From: a phage
Reading direction: 5' to 3' (one strand)
Length of the DNA: 64,000 bases
Sequence record: PZ445446.1
The position numbers were made by a program, and so were the translations under genes. Positions 31,919 through 60,610 of this stretch are shown in pieces. Position 1 is the first letter of the stretch; each line of letters opens with the position of its first letter. Under the pieces are notes generated by a model. That model saw only the letters and a program-made list of their open reading frames with translations. It did no database searches and was not told where the DNA came from.

Positions 31919-32316
31919 TGATTACAGGTGTGAAGATTCTCCAATACCACTTAACCAAATTGGAAGATGCTGAAAAAGAGCTTGCAGAAGTTCTGAATAG
32001 TGGATATACTTTGCTATCATGCGCCTGCTCAGACACCTACGTTGTGTGGACACTTATCCGGAAGGAAGAGCCTGCAGGGATCTTGGTGCCAAACCCTAAG
32101 ATTATTAGTGAGGTGGATGACTATTCCCAGGACGGCCTGCCAGAAGGCTGGGAAGTATGGGAAGGTGGTGAAAACCCTGCACCAGGTAAGTGGGTAAAAT
32201 ATAAACTACGTAGTGGTGCACAGTACGCTGACTACTCTGATGACCTAGACTGGAGTCATTCTTCACCAGGATCGTCTGCAAGTTCATATGATATCGTTGC
32301 TTTTCAGGAAGAATAA
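31918..32316 (+). CDS. hypothetical protein
   Basis: 132-aa ORF, ATGA overlap. Confidence 0.4.
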   Translation: MITGVKILQYHLTKLEDAEKELAEVLNSGYTLLSCACSDTYVVWTLIRKEEPAGILVPNPKIISEVDDYSQDGLPEGWEVWEGGENPAPGKWVKYKLRSGAQYADYSDDLDWSHSSPGSSASSYDIVAFQEE

Positions 32317-46489: not shown

Positions 46490-46799
46490 TATTTTAAGTT
46501 ATCAGATTGCCAGAGATCAGGAGGATTTCTAAAATGGATTTCCTCCTTTTGATATTTTACCTACCAGGATATTTTAAAATCCTTAGAAAATCAGAAAATG
46601 GATCGAAAACTAAAATGGATTTTTCAGAGCAGGCACGACGAGATGAACCACTCATCCTATCGTCTGCACCATATTCCAGACCACCATTACAGATTTCCCG
46701 CACATGCTCACACCCTTCTACTAGAACTTCCCCCACTTACCCTTGACCTTTTATAGTAATAATCCAACCACTACCTTGAAGTTGTGGCGCAGCTTTCCA

Positions 46800-46887
46800 A
46801 GTACTCGATCTGTTTTTCGTTTCAAAGATTGAATTTTCTGAAAATTTTTCTCGATAAATTTCTCAGTACTCGATCTGTTTTTCGTTT
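46800..46887. repeat. 23-bp perfect direct repeat pair (agtactcgatctgtttttcgttt)
   Basis: Copies at 46800-46822 and 46865-46887; partial third copy near 46947-46963. Confidence 0.65.
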
Positions 46888-47090
46888 TCTGAATCGGATT
46901 TTCTGGAAATCGTTCCGGCTCTCGACCTGAAATTTTTGGGGACGAAATCGATTTTTCGTTTTCAGAAATGGATTTTTAAAATTTCTATATGGGAATATTT
47001 TAGTGGATACTATTTTATAGGAAATTGTTACGGAGGATAATTAGCGTGCTAATTAAATTTATTAAATGCGAGGAGTTCTCATTTAGAATT

Positions 47091-47109
47091 TTGAATGATA
47101 ATCATTCTC
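47091..47109. promoter_or_regulatory. Fur-box-like operator (15 of 19 to GATAATGATAATCATTATC)
   Basis: ttgaatgataatcattctc; overlaps candidate -10 hexamers. Confidence 0.5.
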
Positions 47110-47122
47110 GTTTGCAGAATAA

Positions 47123-47165
47123 CGGGCAGGCCCGGTGATTGTCTCCCGGCCCCTACTGCCCCGGC
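47123..47165. repeat. GC-rich structured repeat, copy 1 (core CCGGTGATTGTCTCCC)
   Basis: Follows Fur box A; flanking GGGCAG/CTGCCC can pair around core. Confidence 0.5.
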
Positions 47166-47226
47166 TTGTTATTATAGTAACACACAGGACAAAGAAAGCA
47201 AGAAGTTTTTGCATAAATTTTTAGAC

Positions 47227-47245
47227 GATAATGATAATCGTTCTC
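47227..47245. promoter_or_regulatory. Fur-box-like operator (17 of 19 to consensus)
   Basis: gataatgataatcgttctc; preceded by TTGCAT about 17 nt upstream, so box overlaps a candidate -10. Confidence 0.55.
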
Positions 47246-47254
47246 ATTTCATGC

Positions 47255-47300
47255 AGCGCCCATCCCCGGTGGTTGTCTCCCCCGTCACCGGTGCCTGCCG
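47255..47300. repeat. GC-rich structured repeat, copy 2 (core CCGGTGGTTGTCTCCC)
   Basis: Follows Fur box B; CCGGTG/CACCGG stem. Confidence 0.5.
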
Positions 47301-47509
47301 TCCTTTCGATAGGTATATTTTGCCACCTGGCGGGGCCGCTGTCAACACTTTTCAAAAAAAAAAAAAATTCTAACCTGATGCGCTGACCGCTGCAACCTGG
47401 CGGGGCCAGCCTGGCAGGGCCTAACTGACCAGGTAGGAGAGAATGAAGGCTTGCAAACCTGGTGGGCCTATGCTATAGGATAGGTAACAATTGAAGAGGA
47501 GGTACAAAA

Positions 47510-47647
47510 ATGGAAGGTAATATGATCCCCCTGGTTGAAAAGGCTATGGCGGGAGCGTTGGAACATAAAGAAGAGTACGAAAAAATGATGGTTAACCTGG
47601 CAGGGGCGGCGGCTGGAGAATTCTACCCAAAAAATAATTTTAACTAA
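47510..47647 (+). CDS. hypothetical small protein (45 aa)
   Basis: ATG 7 nt after GAAGAGGAGG RBS; first gene after the 1-kb noncoding region; absent from track. Confidence 0.35.
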   Translation: MEGNMIPLVEKAMAGALEHKEEYEKMMVNLAGAAAGEFYPKNNFN

Positions 47648-47650
47648 TGG

Positions 47651-47679
47651 TTGACAGCTCGGACAGTTCTTGTTATTCT
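47651..47679 (+). promoter_or_regulatory. sigma70-type promoter TTGACA-N17-TATTCT
   Basis: Just after stop of 47510-47647, upstream of 47733. Confidence 0.5.
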
Positions 47680-47732
47680 TATCCTCACAAGGTGAACAAC
47701 ACCACACCAATTAACAGAGAGGATAAAAAATC

Positions 47733-47930
47733 ATGAACGCCTACGGAATTAAAGTACGTCGCAACACTCGCCAGGTGGTCACCAATCAAGTGATTTGCCG
47801 GGTGGATGTAACCATCAACAACGGGCAAGGCCTTTATAAATTTCGTCGCGGTCATAGCTATACCCTGCAACAGCTTAACCGTTGCGCCCTGACAAAAGGT
47901 CAGATCAACCACTGGTTTAATAAAAAATAA
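47733..47930 (+). CDS. hypothetical small basic protein
   Basis: 65 aa; promoter upstream. Confidence 0.45.
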   Translation: MNAYGIKVRRNTRQVVTNQVICRVDVTINNGQGLYKFRRGHSYTLQQLNRCALTKGQINHWFNKK

Positions 47931-47932
47931 TG

Positions 47933-47961
47933 TTGACATATGGTCTGACACAAAATACACT
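47933..47961 (+). promoter_or_regulatory. sigma70-type promoter TTGACA-N17-TACACT
   Basis: 3 nt after stop at 47930; gene starts 47994. Confidence 0.55.
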
Positions 47962-47993
47962 GAAATCACAAAAGACACTAAGAGGATAAAATC

Positions 47994-48392
47994 ATGAAAA
48001 CCACTACCTTTAATTTTGATAATGCGGACTTTTCTTTTTCTGATGTCAAGAACTGCCGCCGTGATCGTGGATTTTACAAGGCTTATAATCTGGTGGGCCT
48101 GGACGATGACAATAATTTGCACGAAGTAGCTGAGATCCGGTATTATGCCGCCGCCAGTGGTAACACTCACTACTGCGTGTTTTGGATTCACGACAACAAG
48201 AACAATAAGTACGGTTATACTGGCGGCAAGGCGAGCGGTCACGGTTACGATAAAGCTAACGCAGCACTTGAGAGCGCATTAAATGCTATGGGGATCACTG
48301 CCGACGGCTGGATCTACGAAGAAGAGTTTTTGTCGGCACTTGCTGACCACCTGGGCTATAAAAAGCACATTGTGACATGCGCCCACGAATAA
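47994..48392 (+). CDS. hypothetical protein
   Basis: 132 aa; AAGAGGA RBS after TTGACA-N17-TACACT promoter. Confidence 0.5.
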   Translation: MKTTTFNFDNADFSFSDVKNCRRDRGFYKAYNLVGLDDDNNLHEVAEIRYYAAASGNTHYCVFWIHDNKNNKYGYTGGKASGHGYDKANAALESALNAMGITADGWIYEEEFLSALADHLGYKKHIVTCAHE

Positions 48393-54486: not shown

Positions 54487-54540
54487 ACCTGGTGGGGCCG
54501 AAAAGGCCCCAATTATGAAAATAAAGAGAGGTAAATCATC

Positions 54541-56167: not shown

Positions 56168-56226
56168 TCCTTATAAACTACAAAACAGGGCTTGCAATGG
56201 TCCTGTTTTTTGTTATACTTGTTTCA

Positions 56227-56273
56227 CGGCAGGCACCTGGCGACGGGGGGAGACAATCACCGGGTGTGCCTGC
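56227..56273. repeat. GC-rich structured repeat, copy 3 (inverted orientation)
   Basis: Reverse complement gives cacccggtgattgtctcccccc…ggtgcctgccg, matching copy 2; GGCAGGCAC/GTGCCTGC stem. Confidence 0.5.
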
Positions 56274-56295
56274 TATATAAAAATTATAAAAACCG

Positions 56296-56324
56296 TTGAC
56301 ATCTGCCAGGTGGTGGGGTAGCAT
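56296..56324 (+). promoter_or_regulatory. sigma70-type promoter TTGACA-N17-TAGCAT
   Basis: Upstream of ATG 56380; leader GGGGGCaaaaGCGCCC hairpin. Confidence 0.5.
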
Positions 56325-56379: not shown

Positions 56380-56652
56380 ATGTTAAGCTGGATTAACCAA
56401 GAAGTTGAATCACGTTTTAATGCTATTTGGGATCTCATCGAAAAAGAGGACGGAACATCAAGCCCTTATCTCAATAATCTTGAATTCCATTTCGTGGAAG
56501 CGATGAACGCAGAACATGATCACGAAGGTGGTGCGGATGAATTCGCTAAAGGATATGGCTTCAACAATGCCAACGAAATGATCGAGGCGGTTGTACTCCA
56601 GGCTGAGGAAGATTATCAATTAAAAACGCTTGAATTCTGCCGCCGTAAGTAA
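56380..56652 (+). CDS. hypothetical acidic protein
   Basis: Internal ATG after GGAAGAGAGGAAAA; track start 56296 coincides with the promoter -35. Confidence 0.5.
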   Translation: MLSWINQEVESRFNAIWDLIEKEDGTSSPYLNNLEFHFVEAMNAEHDHEGGADEFAKGYGFNNANEMIEAVVLQAEEDYQLKTLEFCRRK

Positions 56653-57586: not shown

Positions 57587-58200
57587 TGCTCTTCTCCTAC
57601 CATAAACGGCCCTACCTGGCAAGTGGAATAATTGACTAGCCATCAATCCCACATACTGTACAAATATACATGGAAAATAACTATTGCATAATTTTTCATT
57701 GTGTGGTAGCAAGTCCATTTTTACCCGTTTTCTCTCCCAAAAGTGCACGTAATGCCGCTATTGCACAAATTTTAACCTGATGCACATCTCCAATATCTTG
57801 TCAACAACTAAAAATCTTTATAAGTCATACACTTACACAGCATCGAAAGCGTGTTCTACGCGAAAAATCGAGTATAACTATAGCCGCCAGATCTCAGAAT
57901 TCACGTACGCACGCCATTCTATAGCCTGCAAAGTATTTATTCCAACCACAGAATAACGGAATAGTCAATACCTGCATAAAATAATTATTCGTGTAAACTG
58001 CATAACATAAATCAGCTCAGGTGTCAACATTTTTCGTAAACAGTCCGAAATTATCACGATGAGCTATCATAAACAGAGAAATATTTAGTCGTCTAATGTT
58101 TACTGTACATTACTATACTGACTGGAATCATTAGATGACTAAGAGAAAGATAAGAAATAATTAATAATGTAATTATTTTACCTGTAACAATAAGGCAACT

Positions 58201-58494
58201 ATGCAAACGAATGGCATGGCGCGACGGAGTCGCGACATAATATAAAAGCAGTAACCATCACCCCCGTGATAGTTTGTCTGCAAACTATTAATCAGATCAT
58301 AGTTGCCTTGTATTTAGTTAATCATGACATAACAAGCAAGGCAACTATAGATCTTCTAATAGTTGCCCTGCTTTTATATTATGTCATAGGAACGCCCGAA
58401 GGGGTGACCTAGTCACCTGGTATAGCCAGCGAAAGATTATTAACTTGTCGATTGTTATCTTGTTAATTGTTTTCATGCAAACGAATGGCATGGC
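58201..58494. repeat. 20-bp direct repeat pair (atgcaaacgaatggcatggc)
   Basis: Copies at 58201-58220 and 58475-58494. Confidence 0.6.
58234..58387. repeat. 18-bp perfect inverted repeat pair (gacataatataaaagcag / ctgcttttatattatgtc)
   Basis: Arms at 58234-58251 and 58370-58387. Confidence 0.6.
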
Positions 58495-60060
58495 TTATCA
58501 TCTATGCGTGAACAGTGAGGCATGCAATAGTAACAATTGTTATTGTATCCAGTGTGTTGAGTATGCCCAGTGTGTCACTATTATGTCATATTATGTCACA
58601 GTATGTCAGACAAGTTTTCCTCCTCTTTGTCAAGTGCTGCATGAAAAATTTACAAGCTTGTATGGTAGCATTTTTGCGGCCCTGTTTACATTCAGTGTTG
58701 TATGTATAATCCTTGTTGTGTGGGCGTTTAGACGTCTGGACGGTCAGAAGTTTGCAGGTCAATATCTAATCTATTGGCTGCTAACTATATCCCCCACAAA
58801 TAATAAGAAATATAATTGTTATGTGCGTAAACAGTAACCCATGTTATCAATCCCTGTATGTATCGCCAGTGGTGCGCATAATGGGTATTATGTTAAATTG
58901 CCCGTAATGATAACAGTTCTCACAATGATAGGTATTCTCATTCATCCACACAAAATAGGTTGCAAATGTTGTGCCACTGTGTGAACGGCCTGGCCTATTA
59001 ATTTCTCTCACTGCCTCGATATTTGAGAATTGTTATAAGAATGAGAAGTATTCCCATTCCGTCCGCCTGGCAGCACTCCAGTAGCTACCGGCTCCTGACA
59101 GGGCAGCACTCCTGTAGGTCAGGTCAAAATCGTGGTAGAATTGGGCCTGTTCAGATATTTCTGACTGACTCTTCAGATCTGTGTGGGAAAAGCCAACCTC
59201 TCCGGAGGGGCAGGGGAGGTCAATTAAAAAATTTACGTGGTGTATGAAGCGCTCTTCAGGTAAGGCATGTATTATGGGATGAAACCCTCTTCAGGCAATG
59301 ATATTTGTGGGTGTGATATTTGCTGGAAAGCCAGATATGACGGGACTCCCGGCGGGGATGGGGTAGTACAGACAGGGAAAATATGGGGATGTAGTTGGGT
59401 AAATTGATCAGACAGGTAGAGTATGGAATATGTTACAAGTATGTTAAATAGGGAGGATGAATATCTGCAGGATTTGTGTGTAAAATCAAAGACTTAAGTG
59501 GTGTTGTGGTATTTTCTATAAATAATTCAAGTTTAATAGGTAATATTTGTCTCTATCCACTTTGTGTGGTAAACAGATTCAGATGAAATTGGTTTACAAG
59601 TGTATACATAATATACAAATTAAAGATACAAGAAACCCCCCTCCCCCTTCGGCTACCATTCACCTTTTCCTCTGACTGGTACTTAAACACTTATTCAGAC
59701 TCTTCAGGTTATCACCCATATATCATATGGCAGTGACTGGTGTCCTCCGGCCCCTCTTTCGTCACCCGTCCGCTTCGCCATGCTAATGCCATAGCCAATG
59801 GTTCGGTTGTTCACTCTGTTCACTCAGGTGTATCTCCATACCCCTTCAAACCGAAGAGAACAGAAAACCCGAATTACTCGGTAAAAGAAAAGAGAAGAAC
59901 TTAATTTTATCAGGATAGGCAAGAATGTCAAGGCATGACTGCTCACTAAACAAGCAAACAGTCATGTGTGGAAGGTAAGTGATTGTGGTGGTGGGAAATT
60001 TAGTTGAAAGATGTGTTATAGGTGCGCTTCCAGCACTTTGGCCGGGCAGCTAATTGTGTG

Positions 60061-60276
60061 TCAGTCCAGCGGTTCATCCTCTACTTCACTGAAATCAATG
60101 TTCATGGTCTCCTCCCAACCATCGATCTCAGCACAAGAGTGGAGTTCTTTAGGGTTTACTCCCAAAGCCTCAGCAACAGAGTCTATATTTAACACCTCTG
60201 GCAGGTATGATTCATCGAATTCAAGGTAAATCAGGCCACGAGTGTTGTCAGCTCCACCAAATATCTCTATCTTCAT
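60061..60276 (-). CDS. small acidic protein
   Basis: 71 aa, Asp/Glu-rich; last gene of leftward array. Confidence 0.45.
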   Translation of the reverse strand: MKIEIFGGADNTRGLIYLEFDESYLPEVLNIDSVAEALGVNPKELHSCAEIDGWEETMNIDFSEVEDEPLD

Positions 60277-60397
60277 GAAATCTCCTCTGGAAATGAGAGT
60301 GTGAACAGGGTTTTATACGTTCTAATGCACAGGAATTATACACGTTTGCCTCTTCAGGCCATGCTTTAGCATGAGGAACCTGTGTGGGCTCGGTGCT

Positions 60398-60610
60398 TCA
60401 TAGTCTACCACCTCTGAACTCTTCGTGCTCAGGCATAATAGAGAACCAGATATCTACGATGTCCTCCCACGTCAGGTCATCAGCCTCAGGATCTGTCTGG
60501 GACGAAGATGAAGAGTCCTCAGAATCTAAGTTTTCCTCTTTAACTGGCTCATCCAAGGGACATATGGTCACTCCTTCGGATGTCTCTTCAGATGCATGTG
60601 TGTTGATCAT
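60398..60610 (-). CDS. small acidic Ser-rich protein
   Basis: 70 aa; poly-Ser and D/E-rich. Confidence 0.45.
   Translation of the reverse strand: MINTHASEETSEGVTICPLDEPVKEENLDSEDSSSSSQTDPEADDLTWEDIVDIWFSIMPEHEEFRGGRL

Follow-up and report, generated by a model that had tools for sequence, protein, structure and literature searches.

A short GC-rich repeat of rV5-like phages, its recurrence downstream of predicted promoters in other phages and its possible role as a leader element

Three GC-rich repeats in the genome of an rV5-like phage are true copies of a short motif that has no earlier description. We tentatively suggest that these repeats form a promoter-proximal leader element, acting in cis on the transcript of its own promoter, within early cassettes that resemble the PeSLs of T4-type phages. 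An earlier note on the repeats, made from sequence alone, had shortlisted a small RNA family, a protein-binding motif or an RNA processing signal; the family is real, non-coding and conserved and keeps its place among regulatory signals, but the orientation assumed for it is probably wrong.

The window (the whole 64,000-nt stretch of phage DNA that was analyzed) shows 99.6% identity to Escherichia phage MaxBurger across positions 46500-48000; this segment has matches in 121 phage records, nearly all of them rV5-like Vequintavirus, as is the window itself. The 16-nt core CCGGTG(A/G)TTGTCTCCC occurs exactly three times, at 47132-47147 (plus strand, copy 1), 47266-47281 (plus strand, copy 2) and 56248-56263 (minus strand, copy 3), and the 15-mer GGAGACAANCACCGG gave three exact matches in the window versus 0.00 in 100 shuffles. 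The genome-wide search advised earlier was run with a profile of the three copies over the window and the rest of MaxBurger (1-35000 and 90000-136346), and it returned these three copies and none besides; in most Vequintavirus genomes a 34-nt query likewise matches three places per record. Copy 2 (element B; 47254-47301, minus strand in RNA sense) and the reverse complement of copy 3 (element C; 56226-56274, plus strand in RNA sense, with core GGGAGACAATCACCGG) agree over about 40 nt, as had been noticed, including the 3' block GGTGCCTGCCGT at 47290-47301 of copy 2. Given the exact cores, the three-only profile result and the neighboring Fur boxes and promoter, the sequence-level observations of the earlier note were correct.

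Conservation in relatives, on which the earlier note had let the elements stand or fall, was found in several genera. Orthologues of all three copies occupy the corresponding positions in Certrevirus, Seunavirus, Mydovirus, Phapecoctavirus and an Aeromonas phage, in a set that combines blastn loci with pattern matches in viral and metagenome contigs. Outside the genus, sensitive blastn aligned the intergenic queries in short pieces only, namely element and Fur-box segments at 78-88% identity. In Seunavirus, Certrevirus, Mydovirus and the Aeromonas phage the aligned piece was the Fur box together with the first half of copy 1 (80-88%); in Phapecoctavirus and the Cronobacter and Salmonella phages it was the terminator together with copy 3 (78-83%); and in Pectobacterium phage DU_PP_IV and an Enterobacter phage it was a shorter copy-3 stretch without the terminator (query 57-127; 79-82%). 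The block orthologous to copy 1 (element A; 47116-47147, minus strand, RNA-sense conserved block GGGAGACAATCACCGGGCCTGCCCGTTATTC) is present in about 20 distinct phages from at least six genera. Ahead of element A stand an iteron-like repeat array and between one and four Fur boxes, a terminator precedes element C, and the copy-2 position is occupied in other genera by a diverged block (CCGGCGATCCACCTTCC...) whose upstream sequence is shared with copy 2. The invariant part of the element is GGTGnTTGTCTC; to its left about 15 nt are conserved (GAAT(A/G)(G/A)C(G/A)GGCA..), the right side varies by lineage, and the conserved sequence in RNA sense is GGAGACAAnCACCGG with about 15 flanking nt. The flanking genes of the cassette differ between genera while its position is constant, and in genera that share no other alignable intergenic DNA the box has changed less than the promoter hexamers.

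Predicted promoters point to a consistent reading direction. Nearly all copies, read on the GGAGACAA strand, follow a predicted sigma70 -10 at a distance of 22-36 nt, those of three unrelated lineages included. A strict sigma70 scan of 41 distinct element contexts on both strands found promoters on this strand in 29 of the 41, with the -10 mostly ending 25-35 nt from the core, compared with nine of 41 at scattered distances on the opposite strand. The promoter predicted for copy 2 (47317-47345, minus strand; TTGACA, 17 nt, TG-extended CAAAAT; 10/12 with TG) would start transcripts at ~47310. The candidate promoter of copy 1 (47174-47201, minus strand; predicted start ~47167) combines the -35 TTGCTT (47201-47196), a 16-nt spacer and a TG-extended -10 TACTAT (47179-47174), and with TTGCTT matching at three of six positions it fails the strict scan; this weak promoter, which relies on its TG-extended -10, counts against a leader element at copy 1 in the window. 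In copy 1 orthologues, TTGCAA, TTGATC, TTGACC or TTGACA is followed after 16-17 nt by TATATT, TATTAT, GATAAT or TATAAT at an equal distance. Upstream of copy 3, the promoter scan identified a composite terminator/promoter (56182-56219, plus strand), in which the loop of a terminator hairpin (56182-56209) holds the -35 TTGCAA (56192-97), a 16-nt spacer leads to a TG-extended -10 TATACT (56214-19), and the whole promoter (56192-56219) has its predicted start at A56226. In Phapecoctavirus, Seunavirus and Certrevirus this hairpin shows C-G to T-A compensatory changes with TTGnnn...TGtTATnCT kept.

These predicted promoters vary in the way that functional ones would: their hexamers persist between genera while the GC-rich spacers change freely, and the copy-2 -10 varies in relatives (CAAAAT, CATAAT, CACAAT) at position 3 alone, the least important one. 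The earlier note had implied a plus-strand direction for copies 1 and 2, with the Fur box first and the element after it; with conserved sigma70 promoters on the other strand, that direction is probably wrong. Of the three copies, only copy 3 is oriented like the genes around it. Copies 1 and 2 face left, toward Fur boxes, iterons and the 3' end of plus-strand genes, and the lack of any annotated gene in this direction also speaks against a leader.

The same arrangement recurs in phages unrelated to rV5. Tighter pattern scans placed the box in three further lineages: a 46.8-kb viral contig that matches no INPHARED phage at the DNA level and has no PHROG hits, a 168-kb contig, and the PA5oct group of Pseudomonas jumbo phages. 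The 46.8-kb contig carries at least five copies in both orientations, in which a terminator is followed by a -10 (TATAAT or TATACT, with TG-extended TATAAT in three of the five), a predicted A start and, 12-16 nt on, the box. In four of these copies the box is followed after 60-100 nt by a second promoter and a co-directional gene, and the fifth is a stand-alone unit of ~92 nt that runs from the promoter to its own terminator. Box, second promoter and gene also follow TTGACA-17-TATGAT in the 168-kb contig and TTGCAT-16-TATTAT in the PA5oct group (PA5oct, MK797984, ~31,955-32,255, minus strand; box sequence GGGGGAGACAATCACC). The PA5oct transcripts ncRNA001 and ncRNA002 were rejected as the element, the box being absent from both. 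None of the cassettes in unrelated phages has Fur boxes, and their box is always co-directional with the first promoter. Copy 3 has exactly this layout: as noticed earlier, it adjoins on the upstream side a TTGACA-17-TAGCAT promoter (56296-56324, plus strand; annotated as promoter P168 in rV5), and the gene that this second promoter would serve starts at 56380. The best description of the element is thus a transcribed box close to a promoter, with copies 1 and 2 read leftwards.

In RNA or non-template sense this leader box would read 5'-(G)GGAGACAAnCACCGG-3', followed by nnCTGCCCGCTATTC in rV5-like phages. Each copy is situated within a composite terminator/promoter cassette, ~15-30 nt past the predicted start of its own sigma70 promoter, and would therefore be transcribed as part of the 5' end of a short leader or non-coding RNA. 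There the box would most likely act in cis, as a sequence-specific signal in nascent RNA or non-template DNA and not as a hairpin, with possible roles in stability or processing, in read-through or antitermination, or as a factor-binding site. In rV5-like phages, the transcript would next meet one to four Fur boxes.

The putative Fur boxes are near-consensus and are separated by 18-22 nt from copies 1 and 2 on their right. Fur box 1 (47093-47111, GAATGATAATCATTCTCGT) includes an exact 7-1-7 type match (TGATAATCATTCTC, 47096-47109) and is conserved in all genera examined, and Fur box 2 (47227-47245, GATAATGATAATCGTTCTC, with TGATAATCGTTCTC at 47232-47245) agrees at 17 of 19 positions with what we take to be the Fur consensus. 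The earlier statement that two copies sit right after Fur boxes thus holds for the adjacency but probably not for the order: given conserved promoters on the opposite strand, the Fur boxes come after the predicted starts, at ~+55 to +140. Their centers are ~65 nt (Fur box 1) and ~74 nt (Fur box 2) downstream of the predicted minus-strand starts of copies 1 and 2, ~55-75 nt from the predicted start for elements A and B overall, and at ~+95 to +140 for element C of Seunavirus and Certrevirus. Such downstream Fur boxes accompany A in all genera, B in Vequintavirus and C in Seunavirus and Certrevirus, and the module that recurs in rV5-like phages is promoter, box and Fur box(es), beyond which lie iteron-like repeats (A, B) or the next promoter and gene (C). 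It is tempting to speculate that Fe-Fur binds these sites and blocks the leader transcripts as a roadblock or gate, in which case it could control onward transcription into the iteron region (copies 1 and 2) or the next gene (Seunavirus and Certrevirus copy-3 orthologues). A Fur roadblock placed at +55 to +140 would be an uncommon way for Fur to act, which weighs against this part of the leader reading; we know of no established precedent, and our literature searches returned none for such positions.

A hairpin role for the family was considered together with the folding results. Copy 3, with the plus-strand arms GGCAGGCAC (56228-36) and GTGCCTGC (56266-73), was alone among the three copies in folding better than dinucleotide shuffles (z -3.9 on the minus strand, -2.7 to -4.0 on the plus strand, with a plus-strand MFE of -24.2 kcal/mol at z -3.97), whereas copy 1 (z -0.5 and -1.2) and copy 2 (z -1.3 and -1.9), the latter with its inner inverted repeat of CCGGTG (47266-71) and CACCGG (47286-91), were at shuffle level. 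The description of the elements as hairpin-forming consequently suits copy 3 but not the family, and the lack of a stable predicted structure, named earlier as counting against the proposal, is what copies 1 and 2 and most orthologues display. Among 15 predicted leader RNAs from different phages, three beat their shuffles (copy 3, z -3.97; element A of CR8, z -2.78; one copy of the 46.8-kb contig, z -3.2), and these three favor a functional stem, such as an RNase III or other processing site, a terminator or a 5' stabilizer; the other 12 do not fold better than shuffles. The fold-and-covariation check that had been suggested yielded neither a consensus structure nor a compensatory pair across orthologues: RNAalifold returned no consensus for 18 distinct element A sequences, and 5-11 weak pairs on either strand with zero compensatory pairs for 10 element C sequences. 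When all copies were anchored on AGACAAnCA and scored for flank pairing against shifted controls, the universal pairs were the invariant GG/CC around AGACAAnCA only, and positions beyond them were paired in 25-43% of sequences, the same as in the controls, so the stems said to close around the core are not conserved. The covariance models of Rfam 15 gave no match in the window at gathering score, and at E<=10 sub-threshold, off-target matches only. Taken together, the RNAalifold, flank-pairing, leader-folding and Rfam results indicate that the element is conserved as a sequence and not as a hairpin; a functional stem is quite improbable, and structure as a whole-family property is largely refuted. 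Pairing variants are divided between the strands. Where the copy-3 stem has a naturally occurring G-to-A change at its base, pairing (G.U) is kept in plus-strand RNA only, while wobble pairs in phiTE (CCTGG/CCGGG) and SSE121 (GCGGG/CCTCGC) favor the strand opposite to the leader, as does the B-type block of other genera, which has a plus-strand hairpin with three invariant G.U pairs and a U-rich tail. These few wobble pairs and the B-type hairpin are evidence against the leader reading, and because of them convergent transcription across the element, which may occur, is kept in view.

Alternatively, the repeats could be Fur-repressed small RNAs on the CCGGTG strand, in the orientation originally proposed, with a Fur box over a TTGAAT-18 nt-CAGAAT promoter, a start just before the core and CCGGUGAUUGUCUCC as a single-stranded seed. 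We consider this unlikely. In that direction, every genus does have a Fur box directly upstream of A, and Vequintavirus has one upstream of B as well; one lineage (L043, L267 and L271), the only one in which a -10 candidate at this place passes the strict scan, has a 9/12 promoter (TTTAAA or TTAAAA, 18 nt, TATATT) that ends 11 nt before the core; the minus strand of copy 3 runs into a hairpin followed by UUUUGU; and the strand-specific hairpin of the B-type block with its U-rich tail fits the same orientation. However, the critical second base of the candidate -10 is unstable among genera (CAGAAT, CGGAAT, CTGAAT, GAGAAC), promoters of this sense were the nine of 41 with scattered distances in the strict scan, and the scan found no plus-strand terminator after copy 1 or copy 2. 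In Certrevirus copy-3 orthologues, moreover, the Fur box is >30 nt from any -10-like hexamer and the minus-strand hairpin has no U tail, and in unrelated phages the box follows its first promoter with no Fur box at all. The Fur-regulated small RNAs RyhB and PrrF offer a likeness in the near-consensus Fur boxes beside a short conserved non-coding sequence, but the repeats share no sequence similarity with them and have no Rfam match, their Fur boxes have no convincing overlapping promoter, the conserved promoters face the opposite way, and copies 1 and 2 lack a terminator. It is also conceivable, though doubtful, that the box is a double-stranded DNA operator through which a phage or host protein controls the three first promoters from ~+15 to +40, or organizes the iteron/Fur region, for example at a replication origin. 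Conservation at the level of sequence and not structure, a fixed position relative to the promoter, and the placement of copies 1 and 2 beside iteron-like repeats that differ between lineages as origin iterons do are all consistent with an operator, but the core has neither dyad nor direct-repeat symmetry, GC-skew is unchanged at 47 kb, and the box occurs in unrelated phages, Pseudomonas ones included, that have no obvious common regulator. Its strictly kept orientation relative to the promoter, needed for transcribed signals and not for operators, again favors the leader reading.

The cassettes could also be passive homology patches, in which case mobile PeSL-like units would be maintained by recombination or horizontal transfer and the box would have no sequence-specific job. 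PeSLs are composite promoter/terminator cassettes of T4-type phages (Arbiol et al. 2010, PMC2839356; PMC4122927), in which a strong sigma70-type early promoter carries a GC-rich stem-loop over its -35, spacer or -10 (PMC2839356). They stand before small ORFans in an early hypervariable region with shuffled flanking genes and number ~50 per genome (PMC2839356). PeSLs also mediate recombination and the formation of mini-circles, for which the differing flanking genes of the present cassettes would be at most an indirect sign. The cassettes described here are similar in their predicted sigma70-type promoters (copies 1, 2 and 3 and orthologues), in the copy-3 terminator loop that carries the -35, in the GC-rich hairpin spacers of copy-2 promoters, in the terminator-then-promoter order of copy 3 and the 46.8-kb contig (terminators being predicted), and in the small ORFans ahead of them and the flanking genes that differ between relatives. 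They differ in that a conserved transcribed box after the start is no part of the PeSL definition, in that rV5-like phages are not T4-type, and in that the box occurs three times per genome at orthologous positions, a count of boxes and not of box-less promoter/stem-loop units. Passive spread would account for promoters with embedded GC-rich stem-loops like those of PeSLs (PMC2839356), for a cassette that stays while its neighbors vary between genera and for its presence in unrelated phages; it is improbable, given that the box outlasts the promoter hexamers where intergenic DNA no longer aligns, and given three copies at orthologous sites against ~50 PeSLs per genome. Finally, copies 1 and 2 could belong to a protein-coding gene, ORF198 (phrog_14993; 47095-47373, 92 aa), which covers both, carries a CDS annotation in rV5 and MaxBurger among others, and has a hit to its own PHROG family. 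This is barely credible: the relative L263 has two in-frame stops, C-termini are variable, the ORF is absent from other genera that keep both elements, no Pfam match was found, and the start would fall inside a Fur box. ORF198 is not coding, and ORF198-type annotations over this region are spurious.

Promoter-proximal, cis-acting transcript signals include nutL and nutR of lambda, putL and putR of HK022 and the ops element of RfaH. A leader box would share with these its few copies per genome, its place in a predicted untranslated leader soon after the promoter, an orientation locked to transcription, and copies that face opposite genome directions (copies 1 and 2 leftward, copy 3 rightward). 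The copies themselves contain no boxA/boxB, two-stem put fold or ops sequence (GGCGGTAGnnTG), and, unlike in these systems, antitermination at copies 1 and 2 would have no genes to reach further downstream. Pseudo-ToxI, an antitoxin-mimic RNA of the related Certrevirus phiTE (PMC3475682), is likewise a short non-coding repeat of an rV5-like phage. It was rejected as the element: it maps to phiTE 106,714-106,772, whereas the element is at ~39.6 kb, the copies are single and dispersed with no tandem 36-nt repeats, and their likely RNA sense is the opposite strand. ToxI itself, which we take to be AGGTGATTTGCTACC, superficially resembles CGGTGATTGTCTCC.

With 13-16 nt kept at three orthologous sites in at least six genera, and with its return behind promoters of unrelated phages, the box is a strong candidate general regulatory signal, and it could be used to look for the factor that recognizes it. 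We regard it as a long shot that the box is a widespread cis signal of phage early transcription which rV5-like phages wire to host Fur. If this were true, the reader would be RNA polymerase or a host factor common to enterobacteria and Pseudomonas, acting on nascent RNA or the non-template strand, and the iron level would set the balance between short transcripts and extension into the iteron-bearing, origin-like region and early genes, which would amount to an iron-sensing switch in a strictly virulent phage. The early regions of large virulent phages consist mostly of ORFans and their regulation is barely studied. In the searchable literature we found no report of host-iron sensing by virulent phages, and the fixed coupling of box and Fur box in rV5-like phages, which are in wide therapeutic and biocontrol use, suggests that these may sense host iron status. 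The genome papers on rV5, Certrevirus and PA5oct do not mention the element, and literature searches, including literal motif searches, returned nothing relevant to it.

Several other identities for the box were tried and rejected. Copies 1 or 2 and copy 3 are not an sRNA/target pair, because complementarity is not maintained between the Phapecoctavirus A and C cores, which differ at three of 13 positions. For a sense-strand peptide that begins with M(I/F/V)VS, third codon positions would have to be invariant, and lengths range from 7 to >100 aa (hand translation); an antisense-frame peptide has TAA immediately upstream in the window (hand translation). As a sigma70 pause element, with GACAAT as a -10-like hexamer, the box would have its variable base at the essential last T, and as an upstream activator site of the second promoter it would stand at distances from ~-76 to ~-130 (hand count). 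Beside element B, the small minus-strand ORFs of other genera fall into different families and thus offer no shared regulator. Resemblance to what we take to be the consensus sequences of IHF, DnaA, CRP, Tus/Ter, Chi and CRISPR repeats was partial only. Host origin was rejected as well: in a blastn search of 5,426 complete E. coli genomes, 47085-47320 had one marginal 26-nt match, in its Fur-box part. Scans of 185,579 bacterial and archaeal genomes and IMG/VR with the 16-mer gave mostly chance or in-CDS matches that lack the element flanks; one example of an in-CDS match is a lambdoid prophage gene that contains ...CTGCCGGTGATTGTCTCCCAGTAC...

The promoter-plus-box cassette, in which a copy of the conserved leader box follows its own predicted sigma70 promoter, is shared with three unrelated phage lineages: a 46.8-kb viral contig, a 168-kb contig, and the PA5oct-group Pseudomonas jumbo phages. 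Within these lineages, cassettes lie at L276 1730-1858 and at 2703, 3334 and 5873 of the same locus, at L091 463, at L282 705-721, and on the - strand of PA5oct at L294 640-730 (MK797984 ~31955-32255). In the 46.8-kb contig, one of the copies forms a self-contained unit of ~92 nt comprising predicted promoter, box and terminator. Public RNA-seq data exist for PA5oct (GSE130190).

The motif CCTGG(C/T)GGGGCC recurs in the window, with seven matches at no more than one mismatch where about one is expected (47321-47421, 47458-47468 and 54488-54498). Most copies fall within or adjoin sigma70 promoter spacers, which indicates that the predicted early promoters of the rV5-like family have GC-rich, partly hairpin-forming spacers. 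Such spacers are common to these promoters and to the promoter-early stem-loops (PeSLs), the composite promoter/terminator cassettes of T4-type phages. The copy 2 promoter is separated from the next CCTGGCGGGGCC motifs by a run of ~14 A residues (47356-47369) that varies in length among relatives; rV5 has AAAATTTT... instead.

At the copy 2 position, Certre-, Seuna-, Mydo- and Phapecoctavirus carry a near-invariant block of ~85 nt, CCGGCGATCCACCTTCC...GCCCCGCCTTTTCGCCGTGGGGTGGCG (related-phage loci L245 1353-1450, L246 1355-1450 and L243 13610-13700). Its + strand contains a hairpin in which three G.U pairs are invariant, with a U-rich tail next to it; to the right of the block, a conserved - strand promoter is predicted. 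The block may encode a + strand small RNA or serve as a terminator. Directly to its right, every non-Vequintavirus genus has a small - strand ORF (L243 13729-13995, L247 1519-1710, L248 1524-1709, L249 1356-1550 and L244 1476-1907), from differing families (DUF7170/phrog_4653, phrog_19316, phrog_33408 and phrog_37537); the window has no such ORF. The site resembles a hot spot for insertions.

The window has two Fur boxes close to the consensus, both of 7-1-7 type and reading TGATAATC(A/G)TTCTC, at 47093-47111 and 47227-47245. Orthologous regions of the other genera contain one to four boxes of this type, frequently in the perfectly palindromic form AATGAGAATCATTCTCATT. For virulent phages, the searchable literature yielded no description of Fur boxes. 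Immediately left of the first box are three iteron-like direct repeats of ~47-65 nt each (46791-46976), and the arrays at the equivalent position differ among relatives, as in L271, where ~5-6 repeats of ACTATWAATCACCGTGCGTTATTA span 1890-2080. Together, these repeats and their differing counterparts suggest an origin or initiator-binding region; GC skew does not change at 46791-46976.

A stretch of ~2.5 kb without annotated CDS in MaxBurger (~58100-60600) is located where + strand genes give way to - strand genes; the rV5 paper shows it as a 'non-coding' box. Within it are several repeats, direct as well as inverted, including a 20-nt sequence repeated exactly (58201 and 58475) and a perfect 18-nt inverted repeat (58234 and 58368).

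Among the relatives, ~17 GenBank records (MG0656xx) are titled 'Campylobacter phage', with C. jejuni listed as host. These records share 94-100% identity with E. coli rV5-like phages over the region of the box copies, and are probably mislabelled or derived from contaminating coliphages.
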